Below are positions 12,208 to 57,608 of a DNA stretch of 64,000 nt, in pieces. The notes below the pieces were generated by a model, which saw nothing but the letters and a program-made list of their open reading frames with translations, was not told where the DNA came from and made no database searches. This DNA is from a virus (taxonomy: Duplodnaviria > Caudoviricetes): positions 7,550-71,549 of IMG/VR virus record IMGVR_UViG_3300013383_000031; one strand, given 5' to 3'. Position numbers and translations under genes: made by a program. Every line of letters starts with the position of its first letter. Position 1 is the first letter of the stretch.

Positions 12208-12980
12208 GTTCATTAGATATGGCATTGGCAGAATTGAAGAAACCGTTTGCACCTAAGGATGTAGAATGGAGAATTCAGAGAAAGAGTAAAGACGGACAGA
12301 AGGGAATGGCGATGGCTTACATTGACGCTCGTGCTATCTCTAATCGTCTTGATGACTTGGTAATGAGAAACATTATCGACGGTTGGTCTGTTGATTATAG
12401 ACCTATTGATATGAGTACTATTAAACAGCAGAAGCGTGGGTACGATACTGAAGTACCGATTAAAGGTTTCATTTGTACTATCACACTGAACCTTGGGGAT
12501 ATGAGTATCAGCCGTGAAGACGGGGCAAACCTTACTGATTTTGAACCGTTCAAAGGTGGCTTGTCTGGTGCGTTTAAACGAGCTGCCTCTATGTGGGGTA
12601 TTGGTAGATACCTGTATGATTTGCCTACAGTGTGGGCACCTATTGATAATTGGGGTAACATTACGCAGAAACCTAGACTTCCACTGTGGGCACTGCCTGA
12701 AGGGTACGTTGAACCAGATAGTCCAGAACCGTCTACCCCACCTGAACATACGTCATCGTTCGCTGGTTCTGAAAGTGCTTTCGGTATGCCAAATGATGAC
12801 AACCCATTCACTGAAGATAACAGTGGTGGCGGTGAAGGAGAAATGATTTTCCCATTTGGTAAACACAAGGGTAAGAAATTGTCTGAAGTTCCACCAGATT
12901 ATATGAAGTGGTGCATTGAAAACATGCAGAGACTTGACCCGAAACTGAAGGCGGCGATGGAAGCATACTTGAATAGATAA
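12204..12980 (+). CDS. Rad52/Sak-like single-strand annealing protein with C-terminal DUF3820-like domain
   Basis: LKKPFAPKDVEWR, AYIDARAISNRLD, KGGLSGAFKRAASMWGIGRYLY; C-terminal FPFGKHKGKKLSEVPPDYMKW. Confidence 0.85.
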   Translation: MSSLDMALAELKKPFAPKDVEWRIQRKSKDGQKGMAMAYIDARAISNRLDDLVMRNIIDGWSVDYRPIDMSTIKQQKRGYDTEVPIKGFICTITLNLGDMSISREDGANLTDFEPFKGGLSGAFKRAASMWGIGRYLYDLPTVWAPIDNWGNITQKPRLPLWALPEGYVEPDSPEPSTPPEHTSSFAGSESAFGMPNDDNPFTEDNSGGGEGEMIFPFGKHKGKKLSEVPPDYMKWCIENMQRLDPKLKAAMEAYLNR

Positions 12981-12991
12981 GGAGTGATACC

Positions 12992-40902: not shown

Positions 40903-40977
40903 ACGGGTTTAGCTAAGTGGTTAAGGCAACGGACTTTGACTCCGTTATCGTTGGTTCGATTCCAACAACCCGTGCCA
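40903..40977 (+). tRNA. trnQ: tRNA-Gln (TTG), CCA encoded
   Basis: ACGGGTT/AACCCGT acceptor stem, ACGGA-CTTTGAC-TCCGT anticodon arm, GGTTCGATTCC T-arm, G73-CCA. Confidence 0.95.
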
Positions 40978-42214: not shown

Positions 42215-43507
42215 ATGCCAGTAGGTATGCCAGCTACAGGGGCTGGTGCTCCGCATAATAGCGGTTCCGCCCTTCGCTCTTATAACGTCGTTGGTACTAT
42301 TCGTGATATGTCCGATTTTATTACCAACCTCGACCCAGATAAAACCAAACTGACTCAAATGTTTGGTAAAACCCAGGTAGTCTCCACTAAACACGAATGG
42401 TTGAGAGACTCCCTCCGTCCAGCAATGGTCAACAAACATCCTGAAGTTATCAACTTCGATACCACGGAAACTGTACCGAGACGCTGGATGTACAACACTG
42501 TGCAACAGTTCATGCATGGTTACAACATCAGTGATATCACCCAGGCCATCAAAAAGTATGGCGTACGTGATGAAATTGCGTACCAGTTCGTTAAAGCTGG
42601 TAAAGAAATTGCAGGTGACTTGGAATATGCTATCGTAAACAACGATACCGCAACTCCAATGTCCGAAAACGTAGCAGGTACTTTCGGTGGTATTCCTTAC
42701 TTTTTGGAAGCCGCTTTGACTGGTGCTACTGTTGCTGCAGGTACCTTTACTTTGAACGACCACGGTTTTGTAAACGGTGACGCACTCATCGTTCGTGGTG
42801 GTGCAAAGTGTGCAGAAAACACTGCATACTATGTAGCGGTTAAAGACGCTAATACCTTCTACCTCTACGACACTCCTGAAGGAGCTATGAACTCCGTGAA
42901 ATATGACGCTAACGGTCATGGCGTGTCTAATGGTGAAGGTAAGATTGAAGAAACCAAAATGACTGGTCTGACCTTCCAGAACTGCATTGACGCAGCTAAA
43001 GATGTGGCTAAAGGTAACTTGACCTTTGACCTTCTGAATGACGCTATGCAGCTCACTTGGCAGCGTGGTGGTGACCCGTCTGTTGCAATCATGTCTGCAA
43101 AGAATAAACGTGGATGTGCAGACTTTACTCAGGGTGCTTTGCCGATTCGTCAGGCAGATGACAAACGTATTTCCACTTCCTTGGAAATCATCGAAACTGA
43201 CTTCGGTACTCTGCGTTTGGAAGCTCACCGTATGTACAAAGATAGCGTAGTCGACTTGCTCGACCCACAGTACTGGAAACTTGGCTATCTGATTCCGTTC
43301 CACACCGAAGAACCACCGAGAGTTGGTACTTATAAGGAAAAGGTAATCACTGGTGTTGCTTCTATCGAATGTACTGCACCGAACGCTAATGCTCGTATTA
43401 TTAATCTGACTGGTAAGGTTAATCCGAAACCTGTCGTTGTTGAAACTATTACCGCATCTACTACTACTGGTGGTTCTACTTCTGGTGGTTCTGGCAGTAC
43501 GCCGTAA
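42215..43507 (+). CDS. Major capsid protein with internal beta-rich insertion
   Basis: HEWLRDSL, NTVQQF, KEIAGDLEYA, GGIPYF, LLNDAMQLTWQRGG, ETDFG pattern (SU10/DUF5309-like HK97-fold MCP). Confidence 0.9.
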   Translation: MPVGMPATGAGAPHNSGSALRSYNVVGTIRDMSDFITNLDPDKTKLTQMFGKTQVVSTKHEWLRDSLRPAMVNKHPEVINFDTTETVPRRWMYNTVQQFMHGYNISDITQAIKKYGVRDEIAYQFVKAGKEIAGDLEYAIVNNDTATPMSENVAGTFGGIPYFLEAALTGATVAAGTFTLNDHGFVNGDALIVRGGAKCAENTAYYVAVKDANTFYLYDTPEGAMNSVKYDANGHGVSNGEGKIEETKMTGLTFQNCIDAAKDVAKGNLTFDLLNDAMQLTWQRGGDPSVAIMSAKNKRGCADFTQGALPIRQADDKRISTSLEIIETDFGTLRLEAHRMYKDSVVDLLDPQYWKLGYLIPFHTEEPPRVGTYKEKVITGVASIECTAPNANARIINLTGKVNPKPVVVETITASTTTGGSTSGGSGSTP

Positions 43508-43527
43508 TTGTTGTTTGGTGAAAATTG

Positions 43528-43553
43528 GGGGGAGCTATGGCTCCCCCTTTTTT
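43528..43553 (+). terminator. Intrinsic terminator after MCP
   Basis: GGGGGAGC-TATG-GCTCCCCC-TTTTTT. Confidence 0.9.
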
Positions 43554-43572
43554 CTTATATAGGAGGAATATT

Positions 43573-43884
43573 ATGAGTAATAACATTGTTAGACAGGATG
43601 TAGAAGTTGATAAACATGGTAACTGGTCGCTGACAAATGTTTGGGATCCAACAGAGATCATGCGTTCTTGTTACGAAGATAAGAAGCGTGACCCGTATCT
43701 TGGTAAACACAAAGGCGGTAGACGGCTTGGACGTATCCCGTATGAATGTTGGAACGACCCTACCGAGATTACACTCCAGTGTGCCAAGGAGGCTATGGCT
43801 TGTGGTGACCATGAATCATTCAACAAATACATTAAACAATGGCTCAAAGATAATCCTGAGTTTATGACTGTTGACCATTTGTAA
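43573..43884 (+). CDS. Conserved head-associated hypothetical protein
   Basis: Start MSNN with SD AGGAGG; GRIP...KQWLKDNPEF pattern. Confidence 0.65.
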   Translation: MSNNIVRQDVEVDKHGNWSLTNVWDPTEIMRSCYEDKKRDPYLGKHKGGRRLGRIPYECWNDPTEITLQCAKEAMACGDHESFNKYIKQWLKDNPEFMTVDHL

Positions 43885-43893
43885 GGAGGTATC

Positions 43894-44427
43894 ATGGAAT
43901 ATATTCGTGCAAGAAGATTGTCCAACGATATCCTCATGGGATTGAATGAATTGTATAATCGAGTACACTCGGATGAAGAGTTAGTTACTGCGATTAACCA
44001 CGTTGTGACATACGTGAATCTTGAACTTGTACGTCTTGATTCCCCTTATGTCAAGAAGGAAATTCCTGTAAAGGCACGTAAGTATGGTGTCGAATTGCCA
44101 GATGATTACATCAACTTCTGCGGCTGGTTGTCCGACGAGGAACTACCAGAGGACGAGAAGAAGAAAATCAAATGGCATTTACGTGGCACTAAGATTTATA
44201 CTGACACAGATGACACCATGATTTACTACAGGCACGTTCCTTTGATTCATCATCTCGATGAGATTATTGAACTACCGTATTTCTTCTATCTTCTCTTGGT
44301 GCGTTTGGTGATTGGCTACATCAAGGGTTCTATTACCGATGATGATATTGCTACAGCAGTAGCTAGCGAAACAAGTAACCAAGCAACTAACCTAGAGATT
44401 ACTAGAGAACTTCCGTTCTATTTGTGA
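43894..44427 (+). CDS. Head-tail adaptor/ring protein, paralog 1
   Basis: SDEEL...IN...V...EL...VKKE...VELPDDY. Confidence 0.65.
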   Translation: MEYIRARRLSNDILMGLNELYNRVHSDEELVTAINHVVTYVNLELVRLDSPYVKKEIPVKARKYGVELPDDYINFCGWLSDEELPEDEKKKIKWHLRGTKIYTDTDDTMIYYRHVPLIHHLDEIIELPYFFYLLLVRLVIGYIKGSITDDDIATAVASETSNQATNLEITRELPFYL

Positions 44428-44440
44428 AAGGGGTGATTGA

Positions 44441-44890
44441 ATGACAGTAAACCAATTACTGATTAAGGTACGTCAGAAACTTAACGACATGGGTAAGCTC
44501 AAGTATTCTGACGAAGAGCTTATCTATTGCCTTAATAATGCTATTGATACAGTATCGTTGGAGTTGGCAGACAATAAGACTCCAGAGTTCGTGAAGGAGT
44601 TTCAACTGTCCGCTGGTGAATCTGTAGAACGGCCAGATGATTTCATTGAGTTTGTTGGTCAGTACCCTATCGCTTTCACAGAAGATGAAGATAAGGTAGT
44701 GATGGAATTACTCGACCAAGAGTATCCTTGTCCTATGATTGTGAGATATTTTGCTTTACGTCCAAAGGTTCGGACGCTGGAAGATAAAGTTCCGTTCTAT
44801 CGTGAATGGCAGCTCAACCGTCTGATTAAGAACACTGTACTTGAGGCAGACCCAATGCAAGGACAGACAGAACAGGGGGCTGGTAGCTAA
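44441..44890 (+). CDS. Head-tail adaptor/ring protein, paralog 2
   Basis: YSDEELIYCLNNAID...FVKEF...VERPDDF. Confidence 0.65.
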   Translation: MTVNQLLIKVRQKLNDMGKLKYSDEELIYCLNNAIDTVSLELADNKTPEFVKEFQLSAGESVERPDDFIEFVGQYPIAFTEDEDKVVMELLDQEYPCPMIVRYFALRPKVRTLEDKVPFYREWQLNRLIKNTVLEADPMQGQTEQGAGS

Positions 44891-45426
44891 TGGCAGATAA
44901 TCCAGGATTACCTACAGATACCACAAACCCGGCTACTACGTTTACTCGTATGACTGGCGAGCAGTTCCTTGACCGTTATGCTATTCGTCAACGTATCTCT
45001 GACGCTATCGAAACAGGATACACTGATGATGAATTATTAGCCTATATTAACGACGCAATTAACATGGTATGGAATGTTATGATTCAAATGGATTATGATG
45101 AAATTGCTGGTTATTTAACGATGAATGAACGCAAAATAGAGATTCCTAAAGATTATTGGATGCCTACAGGTAAGCCGCCAGTACAGAGATACGACCACAT
45201 GTTATATTGCTACGGTGACTTACCCTGTTCTTTTAGATACTGGATGAGGCCTAAGTTTCTTTCTACGCTACAGGATACTTTACCGCAAGGCACCAGTTGG
45301 TTCAACACTGCGTTACTTAATCTTGTGGCACAGATGGTAGTCACACTTGCTATGCAGAACCACGGTTTTGACATGGGTTCTGAGATGGACTTCACAACCA
45401 GTATTGCTAAATTACTTCCGAAATGA
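44890..45426 (+). CDS. Head-tail adaptor/ring protein, paralog 3
   Basis: YTDDELLAYINDAIN...IEIPKDY. Confidence 0.65.
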   Translation: MADNPGLPTDTTNPATTFTRMTGEQFLDRYAIRQRISDAIETGYTDDELLAYINDAINMVWNVMIQMDYDEIAGYLTMNERKIEIPKDYWMPTGKPPVQRYDHMLYCYGDLPCSFRYWMRPKFLSTLQDTLPQGTSWFNTALLNLVAQMVVTLAMQNHGFDMGSEMDFTTSIAKLLPK

Positions 45427-45435
45427 GGTGGATAG

Positions 45436-47400
45436 ATGGCTACAGATTTTAACACACAGGCGGCTAAACTAGTAGCCGCTATTCCTACAGACTCTCAGGG
45501 TGATGGTCGTAAGTTTGCTGACGCAGTTCGGAAATCTTTAAACTATATCGCCACGTACGCTGGAACGGGTAGCGGTTCTGGTGGCGGTGGAGAAGGAACT
45601 GTTACAACTATTAGTAACCAGCTTTCTAATGTTAAGATGACGTATAAGAAATCTGGTGACTATTATAACTTAATCATCACATGGGAGACTGGTGATTTTA
45701 ATGAAGCTCGTGTGTATAGTTACGCCTTGCTTAATCTTCAACAGTCACCGCAAAAGGGTGACACTTCTGTCAACTGGAATCAGGTAGGCTCTCGTATTTA
45801 TCAGTCCAAGAAAGGTGAACTCACTGCTACGATTAGTAATGTGTTACCTGGATATAGATACAGAGTAACAGCTATCGGTGTTACTGATGACGGCAAACGT
45901 TCTGAAGAAGATAAGGCACCTAGTGCTCAAGTCTTCATTCCTGTGCAGGTACGGGATACAACACCACCAGCTTCTTTAACAACTACAGCTACTGCGAAAG
46001 GATTATTAATTGAATGGACACAGAAGTCTGACGCTTTCTATACCTTCACAGAATTGAGAGACGGTAACAACGACTTTGGCACTGACGATGGATTACTCAC
46101 ACGTTCTCGTGGTCAGTCTTTTATGTACATCCCTAAAGAGCGTAATGGTACTATTTACGCCGCTAACTTTGGTATTAGTGGTAAATACTCTACCTCGCTT
46201 AATTCTAACTACTCTTTCCCACAGTTAACGACGCCAGAAACTCCTACGGTTACGGTTGATAAAAACGATAACGAAGACCAATATAAAATTACAGTTGACT
46301 TCAAAGCACCTGCCTATGGACTTGGGACAAACGTGTATATTAACAATGTTAAGTTTACAGTTGACTACACGCAGCATACTTTCGTGTATTACACAACCAA
46401 GGAACATGATGTTATTAGTCTTACATACTTCGATTGCATAGGAGAGTCTAATCATTCTACTTCTGTTACAGTTGATGTAAGCAACCCAAGACATTCTGAT
46501 TTGAACACCTTTATTGATGTCCACAGTAATAACATTACTGGTAACAATGCCGATATGAATATCATCAACGCTAAGAAACTTACGAGTAATACAATTACTG
46601 TAGATACCCTGAAAATTGATGACACTATCGAGGCTGACGCAGTTAAGGCAAATACCATCAACGCAGATGACCTTAGTGCTAATAAAGGTGCTATCCTTGA
46701 TTTGACTGCTAATACTGTGAACGCTATCGACGCTACACTAGGTAATGCTGATATTAGTACTCTTACTTACATGACCATGACGCCAACTGACGGTGCTGAT
46801 GGTATGATTACGGCTAACCGTATTATTAGTAATGGTACTATCAGTACCACTGGAGAAGTAGACGCAAATAAGATTGTGTTCACCGTGAACAATAGTACTA
46901 CAGAAGACCCAAGTATCGGCAAAGAAACATGGCAGAACAGTGGTAAAGAAGATTATGGTCTGGTGCTTAGAGGTAAGACTACTTACTTCAATGGAGTCGG
47001 TAAGGGTAATAAGGCTTGGATTAATAACGAAACTGGTGACGCTAGTTTTAGCGGTGGTATGACAATTGCTGGTGACCTAAATGTCACAGGTACAGTATAT
47101 GGCGAAGGTGGTTTAGGCTCGCCATATTCCAATAACGGTTATACTCCAATCGTATCCTACGGTACATCAAAAGGTGGCGACGTAATAGGGAATTCTCCAT
47201 ATATTTCTACTGGCAGAGATAGTGGGTCTGGTACTAAACCTGAGTATGGTGCTGTGTTTGAACCAATGTTTCAGAATGGCACATACGCACTAGCTGACAT
47301 AATTAACACACTATTAAAACACTCGGTTAAAGTAACTAATAAACAAGTGGGTACTTCGTGGCAATGTAATTGTGATTGTAACTGTAACTGCGATTGTTGA
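45436..47400 (+). CDS. Tail/spike protein with FN3-like domains, beta-repeat stalk and C-terminal CNCDCNCNCDC motif
   Basis: LPGYRYRVTAIGV (FN3-like), I/L-x-A/D beta-repeats, six Cys in the last 11 residues versus one Cys elsewhere. Confidence 0.7.
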   Translation: MATDFNTQAAKLVAAIPTDSQGDGRKFADAVRKSLNYIATYAGTGSGSGGGGEGTVTTISNQLSNVKMTYKKSGDYYNLIITWETGDFNEARVYSYALLNLQQSPQKGDTSVNWNQVGSRIYQSKKGELTATISNVLPGYRYRVTAIGVTDDGKRSEEDKAPSAQVFIPVQVRDTTPPASLTTTATAKGLLIEWTQKSDAFYTFTELRDGNNDFGTDDGLLTRSRGQSFMYIPKERNGTIYAANFGISGKYSTSLNSNYSFPQLTTPETPTVTVDKNDNEDQYKITVDFKAPAYGLGTNVYINNVKFTVDYTQHTFVYYTTKEHDVISLTYFDCIGESNHSTSVTVDVSNPRHSDLNTFIDVHSNNITGNNADMNIINAKKLTSNTITVDTLKIDDTIEADAVKANTINADDLSANKGAILDLTANTVNAIDATLGNADISTLTYMTMTPTDGADGMITANRIISNGTISTTGEVDANKIVFTVNNSTTEDPSIGKETWQNSGKEDYGLVLRGKTTYFNGVGKGNKAWINNETGDASFSGGMTIAGDLNVTGTVYGEGGLGSPYSNNGYTPIVSYGTSKGGDVIGNSPYISTGRDSGSGTKPEYGAVFEPMFQNGTYALADIINTLLKHSVKVTNKQVGTSWQCNCDCNCNCDC

Positions 47401-47408
47401 GGTGAGAC

Positions 47409-48350
47409 ATGAGGTATATTTTATGGTCTGGTGGGCTAGATAGTACATACCTACTATGTAAACTAGCCAGAGAAAGTGATGAGCCGATTCAACCAATTTA
47501 TGTTTTGTTCCCTGAAACAGTGAATAGAGGTGCCGCAGACAAAGAAATAGAAGCACAGGACAACCTATTACCATTTATACGTTCAGAACATGGAATTAGA
47601 GCTGAAATACTGAAACCTATTAGAATTAAAGAGGATGACTTACCATATAGAGAAGGGTTCGAGGAGGCGTATGATAGACAGCAAAACGAGCCACTAGTAG
47701 CAAAACATTATATGTATCGAGCACTTGGCAAATTGACAGACAAATATCCAGGCATCATGATTGGTATTGAGGCTCCTCCCCCAGGACGTTTTGCAAACGG
47801 TATCGGTCGTACTGAAACAGCGTTAAATGAATACGGTATACACATACAGGACGATGGCACTCTCACACGAGACGAAAACGGAAATAAAGATATGTTTACT
47901 ATTTTCGGTGGACTTAAGTTCTGTATAGCACACACAAATGCTATCGAGGAATTAGAAGCACTGAAAAAGTGGGGATACGAAGATTTGATTCCATTAATGA
48001 GAACGTGTTGTACAGCATTACCACAGCAATGTGGAGTATGCTCTAACTGTGAAATTAAGATGTTGTATGGTGACACGTTTAAAACAATAATGCCAAGAGC
48101 GTACGTGAATTATCAAGTCAAACAGTATCTTAAGAGTGTTGACGAGCAATACGCTAATTATTTTACACTTTTCGTATGGGGGCAGTACCATTTACCGACT
48201 GGTTCTATTACTACTAACGCTAGCGGAACTAGTCATAAAATATTTTTATCAAACGAAAAGGTTGGTAAACTAGAAGGTTGGTTTAATGCTTTATTAGATA
48301 GCTACCCCAATTTTGATAAAGTCGATAGAGCCAAGTATGGAATAGAATAG
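47409..48350 (+). CDS. QueC-like PP-loop ATPase
   Basis: WSGGLDST PP-loop; Zn-site-like TCC...CGVCSNC; about 95-aa C-terminal extension. Confidence 0.75.
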   Translation: MRYILWSGGLDSTYLLCKLARESDEPIQPIYVLFPETVNRGAADKEIEAQDNLLPFIRSEHGIRAEILKPIRIKEDDLPYREGFEEAYDRQQNEPLVAKHYMYRALGKLTDKYPGIMIGIEAPPPGRFANGIGRTETALNEYGIHIQDDGTLTRDENGNKDMFTIFGGLKFCIAHTNAIEELEALKKWGYEDLIPLMRTCCTALPQQCGVCSNCEIKMLYGDTFKTIMPRAYVNYQVKQYLKSVDEQYANYFTLFVWGQYHLPTGSITTNASGTSHKIFLSNEKVGKLEGWFNALLDSYPNFDKVDRAKYGIE

Positions 48351-48358
48351 GAGGTCAC

Positions 48359-49363
48359 ATGTATCCAGTAATAGATTTAAATATAGTGGACGAAAAAACG
48401 TCAAGGTACGTTAGGACACATAACAAAGCCATAAGCCAGACGGAAAATGAACTTAATAAACTATATGGCGGATGGCGAACAATACTATGTAATAGTGGAA
48501 TGGAAGCAATTACAACCACGTTAGATTTACTCAACCCATCTACTGTAGTAGTTGACGATTCCACCTATTTCGAGACACGTGATTGGTTACACTACAAAAA
48601 CATTCATACTGTGCAACTAAAAGATTGTAATAATCTTGATGAACTAGATAAAGTGATAGAGAACGCAATCAAACCAGTGTTAGTTATTATCGACAACCCA
48701 ACAACATTTGGTCAATGGTATAGCGTGAAAGCAATCGCTGAATTAGTACACAAACACGGAGGATTGCTTGCAGTAGACAACTCAATTGTTTCGTTATATT
48801 ATTCAAACCCTATTCGTTATGGTGCAGACATATGTGTTGAATCTTATTCTAAATATGTGTGTGGGTACGGCGACGTGATGGCTGGTGGTATCTGTTTTGC
48901 AGATAGTATGAAATGGCTTGAGCAGAAGGACGTACCGCTAGTTAATCCTGGACAAGATAATTTAAGCTGGGTTATTGCTCACAGAGGTAATCATGTAGAC
49001 CCACAAAAAGCCTATATGGTTAGTCGAGGTTTACAAACATTAGAAACACGTATGAGACAGCATACTAAAAGTGCTGGTATTATCTACGATAAACTTCAGG
49101 AATTACAGGTGCCATGTACATGGGCACAAGTGGGGGGTTTAATTACTTTACCAGGTAAGACTGAAGAATTTTGTACACGTTTAAAGCTCTTTAAAACAGT
49201 GGGAACGTTTGGGTGTACGTACTCTATTGCTGATTTCTTCCGTAGTAAAGAACGATATACCGTCGGATATTGTGCCAGACTGTCAATCGGTCTTGAAGAT
49301 TCAGATGAACTACTAAACGACGTACTAAATGCATTGTCACAGGACGGAGGTAAACATGTATAG
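48359..49363 (+). CDS. PLP-dependent Cys/Met metabolism enzyme (cystathionine gamma-lyase/synthase family)
   Basis: SGMEAI, AVDNS, ESYSKY (PLP Lys) ...GYGDVMAG, RGLQTL..RM..H, RLSIGLED. Confidence 0.92.
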   Translation: MYPVIDLNIVDEKTSRYVRTHNKAISQTENELNKLYGGWRTILCNSGMEAITTTLDLLNPSTVVVDDSTYFETRDWLHYKNIHTVQLKDCNNLDELDKVIENAIKPVLVIIDNPTTFGQWYSVKAIAELVHKHGGLLAVDNSIVSLYYSNPIRYGADICVESYSKYVCGYGDVMAGGICFADSMKWLEQKDVPLVNPGQDNLSWVIAHRGNHVDPQKAYMVSRGLQTLETRMRQHTKSAGIIYDKLQELQVPCTWAQVGGLITLPGKTEEFCTRLKLFKTVGTFGCTYSIADFFRSKERYTVGYCARLSIGLEDSDELLNDVLNALSQDGGKHV

Positions 49364-50531
49364 AAATATATTCATAGCGATTATATTCGCTGTAGTTATT
49401 GGATTAGTATTTGGAGACATTACTTGGATACAATATCCTCTTGCGGAATTGAGTACTATGTTTACTTCACTGCTAAAGATGTGTGTTGTTCCGTTGGCTT
49501 TCACTTCTATCGCAGCAGCTATACTAGATAAAGGTGGTACGGCTAACATGTCTACTAAAATAGGTACAATGATAGTGGGACTTAGTATTATCGGTGCTAT
49601 CATTGGCATGCTTGTCGTTTGGTTCATTGGTGTTCCTTCGTTTACTTTAGTTGCTACCACAGCTGTAGAGGTTAAAGCTCCAACAATTTTGGCATTTATC
49701 AATAGTTGTATCCCAACCAACGTACTACAGTCTCTTGTGACTGGTAATATGTTACAAATCATTGTGTTATCCGTCATCGTCGGAGTAATCGGACGAGCTA
49801 GTCCGTTCGCTGAACATATTTTACACGGTATGCAGGTGATTCAGTATATCTTCCTTAATGCCGCCAAGTATGTGATGTGGTTTGCCCCAGTTGGAGTATT
49901 TTCCTTATTATACCCTATGGTAGCTAAATTAGGTGCTGGAGTATTGATTAGTTACGTATATATGTTTGGTACACTTATTGTTGGTATGGTACTGTTTACT
50001 TTAGTTATATCTCTACCGTTTATGTATTATCATAAAGTTGATGGAGTACAGTTTCTAAAAATCTTTATCCTACCAGATATCGCCAACGCTATCGCAGGTG
50101 GTTCTACGAACACCATGGGTGTCCGTATGGATTATATGAGAGAACACACCAATATTTCACATCAAGTGATTGATTACGTCACTCCATTTGTGTCTGTATT
50201 AATGCGTTTAGGTTCGTGTATTTGTGTAAGTATTTATACTCTATATGCGGCTAGTATCTTTGGCGTCACATTGTCTCCATGGGCAATTCTTGTGGTTATT
50301 TTATTAACACCAGTAGTACTGACTTGTGCCCCTGGAATTATTGGTGGAACCCTGATGGATTGTGCAATCGTATTCGCTGCCGTTGGCATTCCGTTGGAGG
50401 CCGTTACATTTTTGTTTGCGACTGATTATGTGATGGACGTTCTCCGTACAGTCTTAAATGTACAGGGAGGCGAAATGGTTACCGCTTGTATAGGAGCTAA
50501 AAATGAGACTATTCATAATACTGGGGCGTGA
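49356..50531 (+). CDS. Dicarboxylate/amino acid:cation symporter (DAACS/SDF) family transporter
   Basis: FTSLLKMCVVPL, IPTN...NMLQII, FAPVGVF, DYVMDVLRTVLNV; start MYRN with SD GGAGG. Confidence 0.9.
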   Translation: MYRNIFIAIIFAVVIGLVFGDITWIQYPLAELSTMFTSLLKMCVVPLAFTSIAAAILDKGGTANMSTKIGTMIVGLSIIGAIIGMLVVWFIGVPSFTLVATTAVEVKAPTILAFINSCIPTNVLQSLVTGNMLQIIVLSVIVGVIGRASPFAEHILHGMQVIQYIFLNAAKYVMWFAPVGVFSLLYPMVAKLGAGVLISYVYMFGTLIVGMVLFTLVISLPFMYYHKVDGVQFLKIFILPDIANAIAGGSTNTMGVRMDYMREHTNISHQVIDYVTPFVSVLMRLGSCICVSIYTLYAASIFGVTLSPWAILVVILLTPVVLTCAPGIIGGTLMDCAIVFAAVGIPLEAVTFLFATDYVMDVLRTVLNVQGGEMVTACIGAKNETIHNTGA

Positions 50532-51438
50532 TTGTAACCTACAATGTACGTACTGCTGTCAGCGACAGATAATTAACCAGCAGATTCCTAGACATATTAG
50601 TACTAAGTTTTGGAACTACTTCTATTCACTACCACCTAAAACACGAGTAACTTTTTTTGGTGGAGAACCTTTATTGTATTTTGGGGCTATTAAAGAAATT
50701 ATGTCTCACCGTTCAGACTTACATTACGGCGTTATCACGAATGGTAAGTTACTCGATGAAGAAAAAGTTACATACTTCAATACTTACAATGTTGGAGTTA
50801 CAATTTCGTGGGACGGCGATATTAGCACAAAGACTCGTGGATATAATGCATTACGAGACAACCCTAACATCAAAGACCTGAACAACTTAGGCATTTCAGC
50901 TGTATTAACAAAATGGAACTCTATAGCTAGTGTGATTCATGGAGTTAATAAATATTTACCAGGCAAAAACTGCTCTTTAAATTTTGATTTTCCGTTGAAT
51001 TTTACAGACAAAGATTTCGAATATGAACAACTCAATACGAGTCGTATTTATAATACAATGTGTAGAGTAACAGATAGAGTAATTCATTTTAGAAGTACAC
51101 CATGTGAAAGAGCTTTATTAGCATTGGTACAAAAACAAGTACATAACAGTAATCAAATAGGGAATAAGTGTGGAAACGGTACAACCGTTATTAACATTGA
51201 TTTAGAAGGTCGTTTATATAATTGTCACAATGAAAATTTCCCAGCTGATTATACTAAAGCTTGGGATAAAACCATTCGTAGGCAGAACGATATGTGTACA
51301 CACTGTGAAATTCAAGGTATTTGTCGTGGGGGATGTTCGCTAGTGTCTGATAAAAACACAAAGAAACAATGCCAAAACAAAATAGCATTTTACGAGGGAG
51401 TAGTTATTTCTTTACTTCGCCACTATGGAGGTGTATAA
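50503..51438 (+). CDS. Radical SAM protein with SPASM domain
   Basis: CNLQCTYC, FFGGEPLL, ITNG, ISWDG; SPASM C...G..YNC...CTHC...CRGGC...C; no N-terminal RRE/PqqD domain. Confidence 0.93.
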   Translation: MRLFIILGRDCNLQCTYCCQRQIINQQIPRHISTKFWNYFYSLPPKTRVTFFGGEPLLYFGAIKEIMSHRSDLHYGVITNGKLLDEEKVTYFNTYNVGVTISWDGDISTKTRGYNALRDNPNIKDLNNLGISAVLTKWNSIASVIHGVNKYLPGKNCSLNFDFPLNFTDKDFEYEQLNTSRIYNTMCRVTDRVIHFRSTPCERALLALVQKQVHNSNQIGNKCGNGTTVINIDLEGRLYNCHNENFPADYTKAWDKTIRRQNDMCTHCEIQGICRGGCSLVSDKNTKKQCQNKIAFYEGVVISLLRHYGGV

Positions 51439-51893
51439 TGCTTCGACATAACTGTGATAATGCAACACCACTAGTACCAGTAATTGATATAGTTATTAAT
51501 CAAGGAGCTGACTTCGATATTCAGTTTGAGTTATTGGAAGAAAGCACTACAACTACAACATCTGATACAACTACAGACGGTTCTCAAAATGACGATAACT
51601 ATATCCCTATTGATATTAGTAATTATAAATTCTTTGCTAGTATTAAAGCTTCTGCCGAGGATACCACGGTAATTGCTCAAATGCATCAGGTAGATGTAGA
51701 CCCCAAAAATGGTATTGTAAACCTATCATTGTCAGCAGATGAGACGTCTGCTATTGACACTGGAGGTAACACATATAGAGAATGGGAAGAACTCTACTGG
51801 GATGTAAATATGTACGATGGTCATGATGTCACTCGTATCTGTAACGGTAGAGCTTTTGTATCCCCTGGTATTTCACAAGGAGGTAACCAGTGA
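51438..51893 (+). CDS. Tail-associated BppU-like/Ig-like protein
   Basis: INQGADFDIQF...FASIK...GIVNLSLSADETS...YWDV...RICNG..FVSPGI; SD GGAGGTG. Confidence 0.6.
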   Translation: MLRHNCDNATPLVPVIDIVINQGADFDIQFELLEESTTTTTSDTTTDGSQNDDNYIPIDISNYKFFASIKASAEDTTVIAQMHQVDVDPKNGIVNLSLSADETSAIDTGGNTYREWEELYWDVNMYDGHDVTRICNGRAFVSPGISQGGNQ

Positions 51894-54800
51894 AAAATAT
51901 AACTGTTGCAAGTACCCCCGTGAAAGTTACATTAAGATTTGGGCAAAAAGGGGAACGTGGTATTGGCGTTTCTAGTGTATCCCTTGATGATAATGCCCAT
52001 CTTATTGTAACATTTGACGACGGGAAAACGCAAGACGCAGGTGCTGTACTTGGTGATGTAACTTCTATTAAGAATGATATTAACTCGACTTACGAAAAGA
52101 TTCAAGCGTCTGAAAAGAATGTTACAACACTTGAAGCATCCACTAAAACAAATGCAGATAAAGCGCAACAAGCTTTACAAGATACCAAAGCCGCCAGTGC
52201 ATCTGGTATAACTACTATTAATGATTTAGTCACCACTAAAGTCACATACTTAAACACTACTTTTACTTCTTTATTAACTCAAGCAAAAGCTAATATAGAC
52301 CAGTGGGAACGTGATGCAGAAGACGCTATCCATAAGGCAGGAGAATATGAACTTGGACGATTAAACACTAATTATCAAGACGCTATGGTTGACATTGATA
52401 ATAGTGTTAATAAAGCAGAAGCTTGGGCGGTATCAGAGCGTACTCCAGACAGAGAACCAGATAGGGATTCCCCCACTGGATTAACTCAATCTTCTCGTAC
52501 TTGGGCTTTATATTCTAAACAAAAGGTACAAGAAGCAACTGATACGTTGAAAAATATGGAGTTACATGAACAAAACGTATCTGATATGAAAGATAGTGTC
52601 ACAAGATTACTGCAACAGACACAGACCTCTGAAGCTAATGCCAAAAGTTACATGGATAGTGCAAAGGCATCTCAAGACGCAGCTGCAACATCTGCCACAG
52701 CAGCAGCCGATTCAGCTACTAGCGCAGCAGCGGATGCAAAAGAAGCAACAACTATTCGTGCCGACATTAAAAATCAACTTAATAAATTAAAAAACCCTGT
52801 GATTCAGATTACAGGGAAAGATACTGGTGGTTTACATCTTTACTTTTTAGACGAAACCACTAAGGATATTACTCTTGCTGAAATGGGGGCAGACACATCA
52901 ACTGAAGTATCCAACAAAGTATCCGATGCTTTAACAACTGCTAAAGCTTACGCAGACAAAAAAGTATCTGATTTAGTTGGTGGTGCTCCTGAAGCCTTGG
53001 ATACTTTAAAAGAACTAGCTGATGCGTTAGGAAACGATGCTAATATGGCAGCTACAGTTACTAAGAAAATTAGTGACCTTTCGACAGCTCTTACACAAGA
53101 GACTACTGACCGTAAAGCAGGAGATACTGACATCTCTAATACTTTACAAACTCAAACGTCTACGTTAAAACAAGCTGATACAGATTTAGGTAACAAGATT
53201 ACGGCTGAGGCGAAGAGTAGAACCGACGGCGATGCTGCAACATTAACTAGTGCTAAAGAGTATACAGACACTCAAATCACAGCGGCAAATAAAACTATAA
53301 CTAATTACGTTGACAATTCCCAAAGTATATTCTTTGTTGACAGCGATGTATTGAGTAATAATACGATTCCTCTCTCTAGTGTAGATACCAACAATAGAGC
53401 GGTTAAAGTTGGCGATACTATTATCGACAATAAACACGATAGATATTTTGTGACTAAAGTAACTCCTGCATCTGGTACTGAAGGGCAAGATGGATATGTA
53501 GCAGCTTCTATTACGGTTGGTAGTGCAAGGGGAACTAATAATATTGCCAATAAGACAGATATGCAAGCTGCTTTAGATAAAAAAGTGTCGTTATCTGGGG
53601 ATACTATGACGGGTACCTTAGTTGCTCCTGTGGTACAAACTGGTACAGCTGATACAAATTATTTTCAGACAAAACGACTACGTGGGGAGGGTAATGCAAC
53701 TCAATTATATCACGCTATTGATTTTGGGTATAGTGACCATAACCAAGTAGATTTTTACGAATATGGTGCTGTATGGAATTTTCACCAAGTAGATTCAGAT
53801 AACAATGCCACACTGGTAGGTGCCATTAAAGCTGACGGTTGGCACGGTAATGTTATTGGTAATGCGGACACAGCCACTAAATTGTCTTGTAATGATACTG
53901 GGGGCGAGAATACCCCTGTGTACTGGAAAGACGGTTTACCAGTCGCTTGTAGTTTAAGTAATTATGCTACTACCGATAATATGACCACAGAATTAGCAAA
54001 GAAAGTAGACAAGGAGGGATATATTGCCTATTCTCAAGACGAAAAGGATAAACTAGCAGGCGTTGAAACGGGTGCAAACAACTACACTCTTCCGATTGCT
54101 ACTTCTTCTGCACTGGGTGGTGTTAAAGGTGGTAGTAACGTAGCTATCTCCGCCGCTGGTGTAATGTCTGTTGACCTCTCCGCTTATCAGACAACTGCAG
54201 ATGCTGACGAGAAATATTACACGAAAGATTCTGCAACCACTGACCTCGCTAAGAAAGTTGACAAAGTAACTGGTAAAGGTTTGTCTACTGAAGATTATAC
54301 AACCGCAGAAAAAACTAAGTTGGCTGGGATTGCTGAAGGTGCCAACAATTACACACTACCTGTAGCTACTGATAAAGTATTAGGTGGTGTAAAAGTAGGT
54401 TCTGGCATTACAATTGATAAAGACGGTGCGATTTCTGCCACATCTGTTACAGTAGATAGTACTTTATCTGATGATAGTACTAACCCAGTACAAAATAAGG
54501 TTATTAAATCTGCTTTAGACTCGATGCAAACAGCTATTAATGCTCTAACTACTCAGTATGTATCTCCTGTGTACTACTCAAGAAATGCACAATGGCAAGC
54601 TGCTAAAACAACAATTACCGTACCATCTTACGTAGGTGTTGCAATAGGTAATCAAGTATATACATCTAGTGGTGCACAAGCGTTAGACATTACTCAAGCA
54701 GATAGTTGGGATACGGATGGTGTAGTTACTAGTAGAGCAGGTCAAGATTTCTATATTTATGCTTGCCAGCCTACAACAGGGACTGTGCCTAAATTTATCG

Positions 54801-55594
54801 TATCTGCGAATAGCACTGTCCCAACAGGGTATACGGCTGATAATTCTAGGAAAATAGGCGGTTTCCATTGCGAATGTGCTGATATTGGTACGATTAGTGG
54901 ACATCCTTTGTCGGGATATGTTGCAGGGGATATTCTTCCTGCCAGTGTGTGGGACTTGAAACATAGACCAATTTCCTCACCTGAAGGTATGGTCTTTGAT
55001 GGCAGACGATGGATTGATATTTACATTGCGTCGTGGGACGGTTCAAAACTCGTATCTAAGTACGGTGGCGTAATGGCTGATGGCGAAAGTACACCTAAAT
55101 GGCATGGGGAAAAGTTTGAAGAAGAATTTGCTAATATTGGTAAACACTTACTTTCTCGAAGTGATTTTATGCACTGTATGAAAGGAACTCCAGAAGGTAC
55201 GAATATATCTGGTAGTAAAGATGCTAATACTACTGGTGGGCATAGTGATACTAACAGTAGGCGCATCGTAAGTAATTACGGTGTAGAAGACTGTACTGGT
55301 GTCATGTGGCAATGGGGAAGCGATTTATTTGAAGCAATGACAACGTCGCATTCGGGTTCTAATCAATATAATGATGGGTACTCGTGGTCAAATCTTTCTG
55401 TTTATAACTCGGATGTTGACGATAAGTCTTACGGCTCGTGCCTTGGCTTTTTGCGTCGGGTTCGCTTCGGCGGGCGGTGGGGCGATGGTTCGGGTTGCGG
55501 TTCGCGTGGTGCGTTTTGCAACGGTTTCTCGGCTGGCCGCTATGGCCACATCGCTGGGCGGGGTGCGTCCGAGCCGTTAGCCGTAGAGCTTTGA
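51890..55594 (+). CDS. Tail fibre/receptor-binding protein with C-terminal Mtd-like C-type-lectin domain; DGR target
   Basis: Coiled-coil shaft, GAPEALDTLKELADAL, duplicated KVDK...KLAG...GANNYTLP.AT...LGGVK repeat; GDILPASVWDL/PEGMV/WIDIY Mtd-like motifs; VR at the 3' end. Confidence 0.92.
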   Translation: MKNITVASTPVKVTLRFGQKGERGIGVSSVSLDDNAHLIVTFDDGKTQDAGAVLGDVTSIKNDINSTYEKIQASEKNVTTLEASTKTNADKAQQALQDTKAASASGITTINDLVTTKVTYLNTTFTSLLTQAKANIDQWERDAEDAIHKAGEYELGRLNTNYQDAMVDIDNSVNKAEAWAVSERTPDREPDRDSPTGLTQSSRTWALYSKQKVQEATDTLKNMELHEQNVSDMKDSVTRLLQQTQTSEANAKSYMDSAKASQDAAATSATAAADSATSAAADAKEATTIRADIKNQLNKLKNPVIQITGKDTGGLHLYFLDETTKDITLAEMGADTSTEVSNKVSDALTTAKAYADKKVSDLVGGAPEALDTLKELADALGNDANMAATVTKKISDLSTALTQETTDRKAGDTDISNTLQTQTSTLKQADTDLGNKITAEAKSRTDGDAATLTSAKEYTDTQITAANKTITNYVDNSQSIFFVDSDVLSNNTIPLSSVDTNNRAVKVGDTIIDNKHDRYFVTKVTPASGTEGQDGYVAASITVGSARGTNNIANKTDMQAALDKKVSLSGDTMTGTLVAPVVQTGTADTNYFQTKRLRGEGNATQLYHAIDFGYSDHNQVDFYEYGAVWNFHQVDSDNNATLVGAIKADGWHGNVIGNADTATKLSCNDTGGENTPVYWKDGLPVACSLSNYATTDNMTTELAKKVDKEGYIAYSQDEKDKLAGVETGANNYTLPIATSSALGGVKGGSNVAISAAGVMSVDLSAYQTTADADEKYYTKDSATTDLAKKVDKVTGKGLSTEDYTTAEKTKLAGIAEGANNYTLPVATDKVLGGVKVGSGITIDKDGAISATSVTVDSTLSDDSTNPVQNKVIKSALDSMQTAINALTTQYVSPVYYSRNAQWQAAKTTITVPSYVGVAIGNQVYTSSGAQALDITQADSWDTDGVVTSRAGQDFYIYACQPTTGTVPKFIVSANSTVPTGYTADNSRKIGGFHCECADIGTISGHPLSGYVAGDILPASVWDLKHRPISSPEGMVFDGRRWIDIYIASWDGSKLVSKYGGVMADGESTPKWHGEKFEEEFANIGKHLLSRSDFMHCMKGTPEGTNISGSKDANTTGGHSDTNSRRIVSNYGVEDCTGVMWQWGSDLFEAMTTSHSGSNQYNDGYSWSNLSVYNSDVDDKSYGSCLGFLRRVRFGGRWGDGSGCGSRGAFCNGFSAGRYGHIAGRGASEPLAVEL
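55434..55572 (+). repeat. DGR variable repeat (VR)
   Basis: Aligns to TR at +214 nt; in the 128-nt core (55445-55572) there are 29 mismatches, 26 of them at TR adenines. Confidence 0.97.
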
Positions 55595-55647
55595 TTAAAT
55601 ATACGTAATATATTTGTAATGTTTTTATATTGGCATATAGACGATAA

Positions 55648-55786
55648 GCTCGTGCAATGGCTTTTTGCGTCAGGTTCTATTCAGCAGTAAGTGGGACAAT
55701 AGTTCGAATTGCAGTTCACGTTGTGCGAATTGCAACAATTTCTCAGCTAACCGCAATGGCAACATCACTGGACGAGGTACGTCCGA
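55648..55786 (+). ncRNA. DGR template repeat (TR)
   Basis: AAT/AAC-rich copy of the VR located between the target gene and the RT. Confidence 0.97.
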
Positions 55787-55938
55787 TACGTGGGAAATAT
55801 CATGGTTATCCGTGCCTAAATTCCTAACGGCTGGTCTATGTGCCATGGTGATAATAAACCAAAATACACAACGGAATAAAGAGACGGCTAGTAAAAATAT
55901 TGAACGTCATCTCTTTAAATTTATTTTTTAGAGGTTAT

Positions 55939-56967
55939 ATGAAAAGACATAATGGGTTATATAATAAATTAATTGATATGGAAAATATCAAACTGGCTTA
56001 TCATAATGCCAGAAAAAATAAAACATGGCAAGAACAAGTAAAATATGTAGATAGAAACGCTGACGTGTTGTTAGAGCAGTTACAGCAATCTTTAATTAAT
56101 CATACTTTTCACACAGCTAAATATAAAACGAAAGATATTTATGAGCCAAAACATCGTGTTATATATATATTGCCGTTTTACCCAGATAGAATTGTACAAC
56201 ACGCTATTGTAAATGTCTTATCCCCGTTGTGGGATAGTATGTTTATTTATGACAGCTATGCATGTCGTAAGAACAAAGGGCAGCATAAAGGTAGCAAGAG
56301 GTGTATGGAGTACGCACGGCAATATGAATACTGCTTACAGGGCGATATTAGCAAGTTTTACCCTAGTATTCGACACGATATACTAAAACAAATTATACGC
56401 AAAAAGATTAAGGACAATGAGATGCTGTGGTTGTTAGATAATATTATTGATAGTACCAACACTGAGACAAACGTACCTATAGGAAATTTTTTGTCGCAAT
56501 GGTTTGGCAATTTATTTATGAATGAGTTAGATATGTACGTTAAGCATGTATTACACGTAACACCATATATTCGGTATTGCGACGATTTCTTGTTATTTGG
56601 GAACAACAAACAACACCTTCACAAGCTAGGAGTTTTGATTACAAACTTTATACAGGATAGATTATCAATGAAGTTAAGTAAGTTAAATCTATTCCATACG
56701 TATCAAGGCGTTGACTTTTTAGGGTATAGGCATTTCCACAATGGTAAAATATTAGTAAGGAAACGCACAGCAAAAAGAATCAAGAAAAGGATGAAATACA
56801 TTGGTACACAATTAATACATAACACCATCCAGCCAGAACGTGCCTTAGGACAAATTGCTAGTGCTAGTGGATGGCTTAAACACGCAAATACATATAACCT
56901 ACAAGTTAGCTTACACCTAAAAGAACTAAAAGAGGAGGTCGAATATGAAAAACGTTCACAGATTTAG
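55939..56967 (+). CDS. DGR reverse transcriptase
   Basis: PFYPDRIVQ, SYACRKNKG.H, GDISKFYPSI, PIGNFLSQ (DGR-type), RYCDDF, DFLGY; start MKRH with SD GAGG. Confidence 0.97.
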   Translation: MKRHNGLYNKLIDMENIKLAYHNARKNKTWQEQVKYVDRNADVLLEQLQQSLINHTFHTAKYKTKDIYEPKHRVIYILPFYPDRIVQHAIVNVLSPLWDSMFIYDSYACRKNKGQHKGSKRCMEYARQYEYCLQGDISKFYPSIRHDILKQIIRKKIKDNEMLWLLDNIIDSTNTETNVPIGNFLSQWFGNLFMNELDMYVKHVLHVTPYIRYCDDFLLFGNNKQHLHKLGVLITNFIQDRLSMKLSKLNLFHTYQGVDFLGYRHFHNGKILVRKRTAKRIKKRMKYIGTQLIHNTIQPERALGQIASASGWLKHANTYNLQVSLHLKELKEEVEYEKRSQI

Positions 56968-57235
56968 CGATTTCGCAAATGATAACATTCTTGACGGTGA
57001 AAAGAAACGTTTGTCTGAAATCCTTAATCAAGAAATTATTGTAACTAGTTTTAACGTGACACCTAGTAAAAAGAACAGTGGCGAATGTTTAAAATTACAA
57101 TATGAAATAGACGGAAAGAAATATGTTACATTCACTGGTAGCGTTGTCCTTATAAAGCAATGTAAGGAAAACAAAGACCAGATGCCGTTCGTAACAGTTA
57201 TTAAACAGGTTGGTAAATATTATTCATTCACATAA
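56945..57235 (+). CDS. Small beta-rich protein coupled to the RT (candidate DGR accessory)
   Basis: 96 aa, overlaps the RT stop, SD GAGGAGG. Confidence 0.7.
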   Translation: MKNVHRFSDFANDNILDGEKKRLSEILNQEIIVTSFNVTPSKKNSGECLKLQYEIDGKKYVTFTGSVVLIKQCKENKDQMPFVTVIKQVGKYYSFT

Positions 57236-57244
57236 GGAGGACTT

Positions 57245-57538
57245 ATGGTAGGATATCCTAAGCATTTAAATACCAAAGAAGATTATGAGTACGTTCGTAC
57301 TAATTTTCCTAAAGAACAGTGGAAAGCTGATTTTCAAGATTTATTAGACAGCCGTTGTGATTGGTTTAACGATGGCGTGGTTGAAGGACAAGGTATAACT
57401 GATGACACCCATAAAGTAGTAACAGATACACAAGAGAATAAATCATATCAATACGTATATAAAGACAACCCTAGTGCTAAAATACATCAACTAGGATACA
57501 CAGTTGACGAAGTCACTAACATTATCAATGGCAAGTAA
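57245..57538 (+). CDS. Conserved hypothetical protein (tail-fibre assembly-like?)
   Basis: MVGYPKHLNTKEDYEYVR..., SD AAGGAGG. Confidence 0.7.
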   Translation: MVGYPKHLNTKEDYEYVRTNFPKEQWKADFQDLLDSRCDWFNDGVVEGQGITDDTHKVVTDTQENKSYQYVYKDNPSAKIHQLGYTVDEVTNIINGK

Positions 57539-57586
57539 TTCTTATAGTAGTGGAGTAATTTGGGGGAGTTGCTTATTATATTTAAC

Positions 57587-57608
57587 GGGGGCTTAATGCC
57601 CCCTTTTT
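57587..57608 (+). terminator. Intrinsic terminator after the DGR cassette
   Basis: GGGGGC-TTAAT-GCCCCC-TTTTT. Confidence 0.85.

Follow-up and report, generated by a model that had tools for sequence, protein, structure and literature searches.

The radical S-adenosylmethionine (SAM) enzyme QhpD, of the SPASM type, makes Cys–Asp/Glu thioethers in QhpC, the gamma subunit of quinohemoprotein amine dehydrogenase and a protein that stays within a larger assembly, and NxxcB, from a streptococcal RaS-RiPP system (RiPP, ribosomally synthesized and posttranslationally modified peptide), forms a Cys–Asn beta-thioether in the N-x-x-C motif of NxxcA. In the freyrasin system, PapB/PapA, the sulfur of a Cys is joined to the carbon next to the carboxylate of an Asp or Glu on its C-terminal side, at any spacing, and the C-terminal residue may also serve (PMC12373016). 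Here, we describe a tail locus in a 64-kb window of a complete 71.5-kb virus record (IMGVR_UViG_3300013383_000031; "the window" denotes the whole 64,000-nucleotide stretch analyzed), in which a tail protein ends in a ladder of alternating Cys and Asn or Asp residues and is followed by four enzyme genes, encoding a QueC-like ATPase, a pyridoxal phosphate (PLP) lyase-family enzyme, an amino acid carrier of the DAACS family and a radical SAM/SPASM enzyme. On balance, these five elements probably belong to a single RiPP-like system, encoded by the phage, through which a virion protein is matured, with a chemistry that we infer by analogy. The elements, with positions counted within the window, are as follows.

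45436..47400, + strand: tail (fiber/spike-type) protein P0001, 654 aa, assigned by position and architecture
47263..47361, + strand: pre-ladder segment P-M-F-x-N-G-T-Y-x-L-x-D-I-I-x-T-L-L, then a spacer of ~10 aa; an alignment places this segment also before the ladder of the unrelated siphophage tail proteins of loci L049 and L058
47365..47397, + strand: Cys ladder CNCDCNCNCDC, candidate core (substrate) at the extreme C terminus of P0001, with Q before it and the stop codon at 47398–47400
47409..48350, + strand: QueC-family PP-loop ATPase P0002, 313 aa, after an 8-nt gap from P0001, assigned by PHROG 1550, profile and fold
48359..49363, + strand: gamma-family (CGL/CBL/MGL) PLP enzyme P0003, 334 aa, after an 8-nt gap, matching Cys_Met_Meta_PP at 5e-42
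49329..50531 (likely start 49356), + strand: DAACS/SDF carrier P0004, overlapping P0003, matching SDF at 2e-53
50503..51438, + strand: radical SAM/SPASM enzyme P0005, 311 aa, with a 29-nt overlap with P0004, matching Radical_SAM and SPASM

The gene content, motifs and folds of the locus are established, as is the co-inheritance of the ladder described below. A preliminary description, made from the sequence alone, had given the order, spacing and families of these genes, all of which were confirmed by the reading of the open reading frames (ORFs), by Pfam, NCBIfam and PHROG matches and, for the QueC-like protein, by a fold match; its account of P0001 as a 654-aa protein with a single Cys in the body and a six-Cys C-x-C end at 47365–47397 was likewise borne out by the ORF. 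P0001 terminates in QCNCDCNCNCDC, and while C334 lies in the body of the protein, the other six of its seven Cys fall within the last 11 residues. With Cys making up 2.0% of residues, the probability of finding one at each of six fixed alternate positions is ~7e-11, and translation of the window in all six frames yields a single (C-x) run of four or more units. The protein has no Pfam or PHROG match; a conserved anchor forms its N terminus and an exchangeable tip domain its C terminus, with two FN3-like beta-sandwich regions and a repeat shaft between them, and its distant relatives share residues ~13–470 only. The AlphaFold2 (AF2) monomer model of the whole protein is poor, with a predicted local distance difference test score (pLDDT) of 56 overall and below 50 for the ladder; its secondary structure places a helix at residues 619–628, within the pre-ladder segment, and this segment is a candidate leader-like recognition element for maturation enzymes. 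The Cys codons of the ladder are TGT and TGC. The phage encodes tRNA-Cys(GCA) and tRNA-Gln(UUG), at positions 8401–8475 (− strand) and 40903–40977 (+ strand).

A search of 5.8 billion proteins returned ~120 homologues of P0001, mostly from gut-metagenome contigs of ~70 kb. The C-[N/D]-C ladder is present in 114 of 122 homologues, its spacers being almost always Asn or Asp, which interchange freely, and its repeat number ranging from three to six or more. The restriction of the spacers to Asn and Asp fits a role for these residues as acceptors in a cross-linking reaction, and the varying repeat number would be compatible with an iterative enzyme. By their ends, the ladders fall into a pure class (NCNCDC, DCDCDCSD and the end of P0001 itself), a "CC"/Gly class (QCNCNCCDGCGDDAG[YS] and ...NCDCGDGNC) and a third class with the end NCNCCDCNSG. 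The eight homologues without a ladder include five of 581–587 aa ending ...NGSELWIE, a sixth of 570 aa ending ...NGSELWVE and a form, 51% identical, with a different C-terminal domain.

The class of the ladder matches the set of enzymes encoded beside it. We compared the gene neighborhoods of a series of loci, denoted by L-numbers, in which each ladder class was sampled. Pure C[ND]C ends are accompanied by genes for the QueC-like, PLP and SDF proteins and for a radical SAM enzyme of the P0005 type, called rSAM-B below, in 13 of 13 loci (the window, L002, L006, L007, L014, L015, L018, L038–L041, L047 and L050; three of them truncated or gene-broken). The "CC"/Gly ends are found with a beta-rich protein of 270 aa, a second radical SAM enzyme (rSAM-A), a 230-aa protein and rSAM-B (L003, L009, L011, L013, L034–L037 and L043), and the NCNCCDCNSG end with the 270-aa protein and rSAM-B (L008); the 270-aa helper has no Pfam or NCBIfam match and gives weak Ig-like hints in Atlas. 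The only enzyme common to all ladder-bearing loci sampled is thus rSAM-B, its short calls in L006, L009 and L011 being gene-caller artifacts with intact CxxxCxxC N termini upstream. The ladder-less 581-aa tails (L004 and L005) are followed directly by the tail-fiber assembly gene LtfC, with no cassette, and about a dozen distant relatives (25% identity; L019–L033) have neither ladder nor cassette genes. Among the type I loci, which have the pure ladders, L018 (12087–13086) and L041 (9927–10867 and 12232–13023) show a broken rSAM-B gene or a PLP gene in three pieces, attributable to decay or assembly error.

In a maximum-likelihood tree built on the conserved N-terminal 530 aa of P0001, cassette type and tip class agree in all 27 rows, through at least five changes of cassette with the tip switching each time. 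For example, the tails of L006 (type I) and L008 (type II) barely differ until the tip is reached, and L011, the closest sampled neighbor of the window beyond its own pair, bears the other cassette type. The co-inheritance of the ladder and the enzymes indicates that they work together, and the comparisons strongly support a functional link between them. The preliminary description had proposed that the enzymes are tied to the Cys-rich terminus; the correspondence of tip and cassette in every sampled locus through repeated swaps, together with the presence of the five-part module in unrelated phages, upholds this. Its corollary, that homologous tails should not keep the Cys end where the cassette is lacking, held in part: rSAM-B is found at every ladder sampled and Cys-less tails are without the cassette, but the trio of QueC-like, PLP and carrier genes is replaced in sister phages.

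The same comparisons bear on the possibility that the four enzymes are a metabolic or small-molecule cassette that happens to be parked by the tail genes, with the ladder as an unrelated structural feature. Regions around tail fibers are known hot spots for inserted cargo, a transporter, a PLP enzyme and an ATPase are typical metabolic families, and P0003 and P0004 are absent from the sister cassettes. In four lineages with differing tail proteins and gene order, however, the four genes always adjoin a C[ND]C-ended protein, Cys-less tails lack them, and the classes of tip and cassette switch together; we consider a merely metabolic role hardly probable.

The five-part module, consisting of the putative recognition helix with a C[ND]C end, rSAM, QueC-like, PLP and SDF proteins, recurs in three further phage lineages, which were reached via ~30%-identical relatives of P0005 and 35–55%-identical relatives of P0002. 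L049, a siphophage-type prophage, carries genes for a tape measure and Dit, and a ribosomal protein gene adjoins it; here, a 206-aa tail protein ending ...GTYTLKAVLQDLINKSH...NCNCNCDNTC is followed by the rSAM, QueC-like, PLP and SDF genes. L058 and L059 have these four genes after a 517-aa tail protein ending ...GTYSIADLIQKLV...NCNCNCDCSD. In L054, L055 and L057, the rSAM gene is followed by two genes for proteins of 84–121 aa with CQxC repeats and then by the QueC-like, PLP and SDF genes, and the small proteins end in CNCDCGG and CNCNCDC (L054/L055) or in CNRADC and CSYDC (L057). Some 45 residues running through the ladder (P-x-x-x-x-G-x-Y-x-[LI]...L and the ladder itself) can be aligned between the window and the unrelated tail proteins, and because it is this segment that aligns, the unit that travels with the enzymes appears to be the module of C-terminal helix and ladder. 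In L058, a RelB/YafQ toxin–antitoxin pair lies on the opposite strand at 9677–10226, with the carrier gene on one side and the lysis genes on the other.

A different solution occupies the same position in the sister phage L010. Its tail is without a ladder; the slot, bounded by the tail gene and LtfC, contains instead a TIGR04115 maturase of the CXXX-repeat type (3e-59; PapB, 3e-47), a second rSAM and two stand-alone CXXX-repeat peptide genes. The CXXX-repeat system is, then, a known system that fills the same genomic slot, but the window differs in that the tail protein itself carries the candidate substrate, with C-x-C spacing, and P0005 has no BLASTP match to the 359-aa maturase of L010 and is 24% identical to its 316-aa rSAM. 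The two peptide genes, at 12643–12990 and 13115–13492 between an rSAM and LtfC, are uncalled in the public annotation and both end in CSGAP; the public gene call at 13326–13544 is another reading frame of the CXXX-peptide stretch. In L048, whose cassette is of the 270-aa type and includes three rSAM genes beside a relative of that helper, a 219-aa protein (2218–2877) carries the motif GWDCQCDCCSCGDSC; a Hint/intein-like sequence comes directly after the motif, and a further Hint-like ORF lies at 3835–4200.

The stand-alone Cys-rich peptides in L010 and L054, and the layout of helix plus core resembling that of a RiPP precursor, could suggest that, once modified, the ladder is cleaved from the tail protein, alone or along with the helix, and set free as a RiPP, the tail protein being only its carrier. 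Against this, the cassette contains no protease or exporter, the structural proteins that end in the module differ widely in size, the N-terminal parts of the small L054 proteins, at 50–70 aa, are unlike short leaders, and the self-cleaving Hint-type domain that follows the Cys motif in L048 would leave the motif on the fiber. Release of a free peptide is therefore highly improbable in our view.

The enzyme shared by all ladders has the features of a peptide maturase. The cluster motif of P0005 (C11-x3-C15-x2-C18) and its FFGGEPLL sequence place it in the radical SAM superfamily, as does its match to PF04055 (35.3 bits; cut-off 29.5), and the SPASM set is complete, with C223-x12-G236-x4-C241, C265-x2-C268-x5-C274-x3-C278 and C290 (TIGR04085, 27.6 bits; cut-off 27). 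In an alignment of P0005 with its relatives (39 sequences), the radical SAM motif and the seven SPASM Cys are invariant. The best NCBIfam match is PapB (NF047865; 76.4 bits, 2.2e-21), aligned over residues 5–286 of 311, and the best solved relative is CteB (5wgg); no RiPP recognition element (RRE) domain was found in P0005. The early assignment of a SPASM enzyme to the cassette is thus corroborated by the complete seven-Cys motif, and the nearest family is a maker of Cys–Asp thioethers.

A Cys–Asp/Asn ladder ending at a free C terminus is a plausible substrate for an enzyme of the PapB type, judging by the described reaction. The likeness to PapB/PapA extends to the combination of a radical SAM/SPASM enzyme with repeated units of Cys and Asp in the substrate, but the substrate here is the end of a 654-aa protein rather than a short leader–core peptide, the spacing is C-x-C and not C-x3-D, and half of the acceptor positions are Asn. 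From ranthipeptide clusters the locus further differs in its QueC-like, PLP and DAACS accessory genes, which are not known from such clusters, and in place of the short precursor that is encoded next to the maturase in ranthipeptide and other RiPP systems, we find a leader-like helix preceding the core, with stand-alone versions in other phages. The match of P0005 to QhpD (TIGR03906, 1.5e-10) covers the N-terminal core only, and QhpC is a small subunit of a quinone-cofactor enzyme, not a phage structural protein. With NxxcB, compared by description, the ladder shares N-C-[DN]-C units, but that enzyme acts on a short peptide under quorum-sensing control rather than on a virion protein.

The SPASM family also includes anSME, an oxidase without an RRE and of similar size, and P0005 might be an enzyme of this kind that converts the ladder Cys to formylglycine, with the resulting aldehydes undergoing further reactions, such as with amines that the trio supplies. 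P0005 does match TIGR03942 (anSME) at 2e-7; the match, however, is limited to the N-terminal half with the radical SAM core, whereas that to PapB is full length, and the ladder has no C/S-x-P/A-x-R sulfatase motif. Furthermore, Asn and Asp are the sole spacers tolerated, and the formation of formylglycine needs no acceptor. We regard this outcome as very unlikely.

Of the trio, the QueC-like protein is a divergent member of its family. P0002 has an SGGLDS motif at residues 7–12 and a Cys4 Zn motif (C200-x7-C208-x2-C211-x2-C214), whose Cys do not vary among 50 homologues; residues 229–313 form an additional C-terminal domain. The protein has itself no Pfam or NCBIfam match, PF06508 included, while 35 of the 50 homologues match PF06508, the best at 1.3e-9. 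When its family profile is compared with QueC structures (2pg3, 1.5e-8; 3bl5, 1.9e-6), the PP-loop and Zn regions alone align. The AF2 model is of high confidence (pLDDT 94.7), and Foldseek ranks Cap9 (9nto_B) at the top, followed by QueC, YcfA, TilS, MnmA and LarE. By profile, motifs and modeled fold, P0002 is a divergent QueC subfamily with an added C-terminal domain.

P0003 matches PF01053 at 144 bits and retains, in comparison with the methionine gamma-lyase structure 3vk2, the Y17/R19 pair of the neighboring subunit (Y-x-R), the D in VDN, the K in SYSKY and the R in ARLSIGLED; it reaches no NCBIfam equivalog cut-off. The longest ORF of the carrier P0004 starts at 49329 inside the PLP gene, and homologues align from residue 10, which makes the ATG at 49356 the likelier start. 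P0004 matches PF00375 at 182 bits over profile positions 4–384 of 387, its closest solved relative is an aspartate transporter (9bgz, 1e-31), and its NCBIfam matches are the GltP, DctA and SstT models, all far below cut-off, with no TcyP-type signal. The Na+ motifs have been lost (NMDGT to MRLGS, and NVTGD, with the TM8 Asp, to NVQGG), and the substrate site D..D..RT..N is kept. An Arg-bearing site of this kind would accommodate amino acids with a distal carboxylate in general, cystine among them, and the substrate may be Asp or Glu or a di-amino-acid such as cystine or cystathionine. The import of a sulfur amino acid and the mobilization of its sulfur, as first proposed for the cassette, would be conjectural, the site looking like one for Asp or Glu.

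Two described systems offer models for the trio. In the biosynthesis of 6-thioguanine by YcfA–YcfC, a PP-loop ATPase of the adenine-nucleotide alpha-hydrolase type adenylates a carbonyl, L-Cys adds, and a PLP C–S lyase cleaves the adduct so that the sulfur stays (PMC12494993). YcfA is among the fold neighbors of P0002, and P0003 belongs to a classical C–S lyase family; on the other hand, YcfC has a cysteine desulfurase-like fold and not that of CGL, the substrate is a nucleotide, and the system contains neither a radical SAM enzyme nor a transporter. The QueC scaffold has also been reused on proteins, in Cap9 of type IV CBASS and in QatC (bioRxiv 10.1101/2025.04.06.647259), and it is the structure of Cap9 that the P0002 model matches best. 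Cap9 and QatC are, however, host defense proteins that attach deazaguanine with TGT-like or QatB partners, and no such partners are present here. For the trio, sulfur transfer is a possible, if on balance doubtful, function; amidation, nitrile formation or ligation of the imported amino acid are the other options.

A QueC-like gene next to a radical SAM gene could also point to a 7-deazaguanine pathway of DNA modification with QueC and QueE, and the PHROG label "QueC-like queuosine biosynthesis" and the fact that QueE is a radical SAM enzyme are in line with this. We rejected this candidate as nearly excluded: TGT/DpdA (PF01702), QueD (PF01242) and FolE (PF01227) are absent from the complete 71.5-kb genome, in which the positive controls matched, P0005 is of the SPASM peptide-maturase type and not a QueE, and P0002 misses PF06508 and aligns to QueC in the PP-loop and Zn regions alone.

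Metal sites occur in described tail proteins, with His-x-His iron sites in T4 gp37 and a 4Fe–4S site in lambda gpL. The ladder could similarly form a metal or iron–sulfur site at the tip of a trimeric fiber, its Cys facing the axis, with the enzymes loading or building the center and the PLP lyase supplying sulfide. Alternate Cys of a strand all point to one side, the low pLDDT of the ladder in a monomer model is expected if partners or ligands are needed, a gamma-family lyase can release sulfide or persulfide, and the PP-loop fold neighbors of P0002 include the sulfur carriers LarE, TtuA and MnmA. The universal partner of the ladder is, however, a SPASM-type peptide maturase and not an Fe–S assembly protein, the sister cassettes are without any sulfur-supply gene, and the L010 slot holds a classical CXXX-repeat RiPP pair. 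We think a metal site as the explanation of the locus rather unlikely; it is nevertheless compatible with cross-linking, and a cross-linked ladder may also bind metal.

Under the reading that we favor, a RiPP-like maturation of the tail protein, the last ~45 residues of P0001 would provide a conserved helix as the recognition sequence and the C-[N/D]-C ladder as the core. Each chemical step of this scheme, like the role of the helix and the geometry of the trimer, is inferred. P0005, made late and in an anaerobic host, would bind the ladder Cys at its auxiliary cluster, take a hydrogen atom from the neighboring Asp or Asn or from the C-terminal residue and so make nonreducible thioether bridges, either within a chain or between fiber chains. 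Such thioethers could staple the host-binding tip in the reducing gut, where disulfides fail, and, in a trimeric fiber, might lock the chains together. The QueC-like ATPase, the PLP lyase and the DAACS carrier, inherited together, would tailor this ladder as a trio: in the scheme that we find likeliest, the ATPase may adenylate the side-chain carbonyl of Asp or Asn or the C-terminal carboxyl, the imported amino acid (or its thiol or ammonia) may add, and the lyase may cleave the adduct, with an outcome of O-to-S exchange as in YcfA–YcfC or of amidation or nitrile formation as in QueC. QueC activates both a carboxylate and an amide, and such activation would match the interchangeability of Asp and Asn along the ladder.

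Several points weigh against this scheme. All of the proposed chemistry is by analogy with known systems, and the place of P0001 in the virion is predicted from gene position and architecture alone. With 76 bits, P0005 is below the PapB equivalog cut-off of 340 bits and so no PapB equivalog; PapB needs a carboxylate acceptor, and many ladder positions are Asn. The substrate site of P0004 looks Asp/Glu-like rather than Cys-specific. The trio is dispensable for Cys-tailed fibers generally, as other cassettes replace it, and its target could be something other than the ladder. Finally, a single clade of ~70-kb phages supplies much of the co-variation, and a tip could be carried along with the genes beside it by recombination of adjoining DNA, with no functional coupling needed. 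Both the independent lineages (L049, L054 and L058) and the Cys-less controls argue against mere recombination, but they are few.

In a full-text search of the literature, we saw no report of radical SAM enzymes that act on the tail proteins, or on Cys-rich proteins, of phages, and none of a phage system of this composition, in agreement with what had initially been supposed of the locus; a survey of the QueC family (PMC13329287) does not mention radical SAM, PLP, transporter or tail. The novelty would thus lie not in SPASM maturation of a Cys-rich sequence but in its acting on a virion protein and with an unprecedented accessory set. If so, virions would not be built from unmodified gene products alone, and phages of anaerobes would use the oxygen-sensitive chemistry of peptide antibiotics to harden or functionalize the part that touches the host. 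It would explain the widespread orphan radical SAM genes in phage tail modules, add large proteins, possibly with inter-chain links, as a new class of natural SPASM substrates and give the QueC scaffold a third function, after nucleobase synthesis and the tagging of defense proteins. The module could then also serve as a portable tag, of ~45 residues and one to four enzymes, for nonreducible protein cross-links. Because the tip and the enzyme set must travel together, the system would be relevant to phage engineering and to the prediction of host range.

A more specific version, which we put forward tentatively and hold to be possible rather than probable, is a portable system in which the helix and ladder of ~45 residues can be fused to any receptor-binding protein, the SPASM enzyme makes thioethers and the trio, with its dedicated carrier, converts the Asn/Asp carbonyls or the C terminus into thio-acid or thioamide (or nitrile) groups, resulting in a stapled, sulfur-dense and possibly metal-binding tip. 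With it, RiPP-type chemistry would be seen for the first time on a virus particle, and the QueC scaffold would acquire a new reaction.

Among 50,697 GenBank phage records, we found no cultured phage with the system: the window region (megablast) and P0001 and P0002 (tblastn) gave no match, and P0005 gave distant rSAM matches alone, at ≤34% identity. A contig profile search with a narrower QueC-like alignment returned one contig, binned as Lachnospiraceae. A hypothetical protein of 326 aa from the cultured Megasphaera elsdenii (WP_054336692.1) is 35% identical to P0002 over residues 4–248; if its neighborhood holds the module, it would provide a tractable host.

The wider setting of the cassette is that of a tail operon. 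P0001 lies 3' of portal, major capsid protein (MCP) and adaptor genes, which in the window are of the SU10 type, and 5' of an LtfC-like gene and a fiber gene; the order after P0001 is P0002, P0003, P0004, P0005, the LtfC-like gene and the gene of a 1234-aa fiber. The features that bound this region are as follows.

43527..43548, + strand: strong intrinsic terminator 3' of the MCP gene, the upstream bound of the tail transcription unit
51369..51893, + strand: LtfC-like tail-fiber assembly gene, the downstream edge of the inserted cassette, assigned by library matches and by the loci of relatives
57587..57603, + strand: the next strong terminator, the downstream bound of the tail transcription unit

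There is no further strong + strand terminator between 43527–43548 and 57587–57603, and because these are the only ones, the cassette lies within the late tail transcription unit; the terminator-free stretch 43548–57587 holds all four enzyme genes, as had been proposed at the outset. In Cys-less relatives, LtfC is directly 3' of the tail gene. The second domain of the 1234-aa fiber 3' of the cassette (region 51890–57235) is Mtd (9e-22), and an ORF at 55900–56967 corresponds in position to the RVT_1 gene of the related locus L011. A diversity-generating retroelement is thus probably aimed at this fiber, adjoining the tail protein that is predicted to be enzymatically modified. In four relatives, the SU10-type major capsid gene is split around a LAGLIDADG-type ORF (L004, 6036–8060; L005; L009, 4157–5690; and L011, 4041–6073), which suggests an intron or intein in these phages; the major capsid gene of the window (42215–43507) is uninterrupted.

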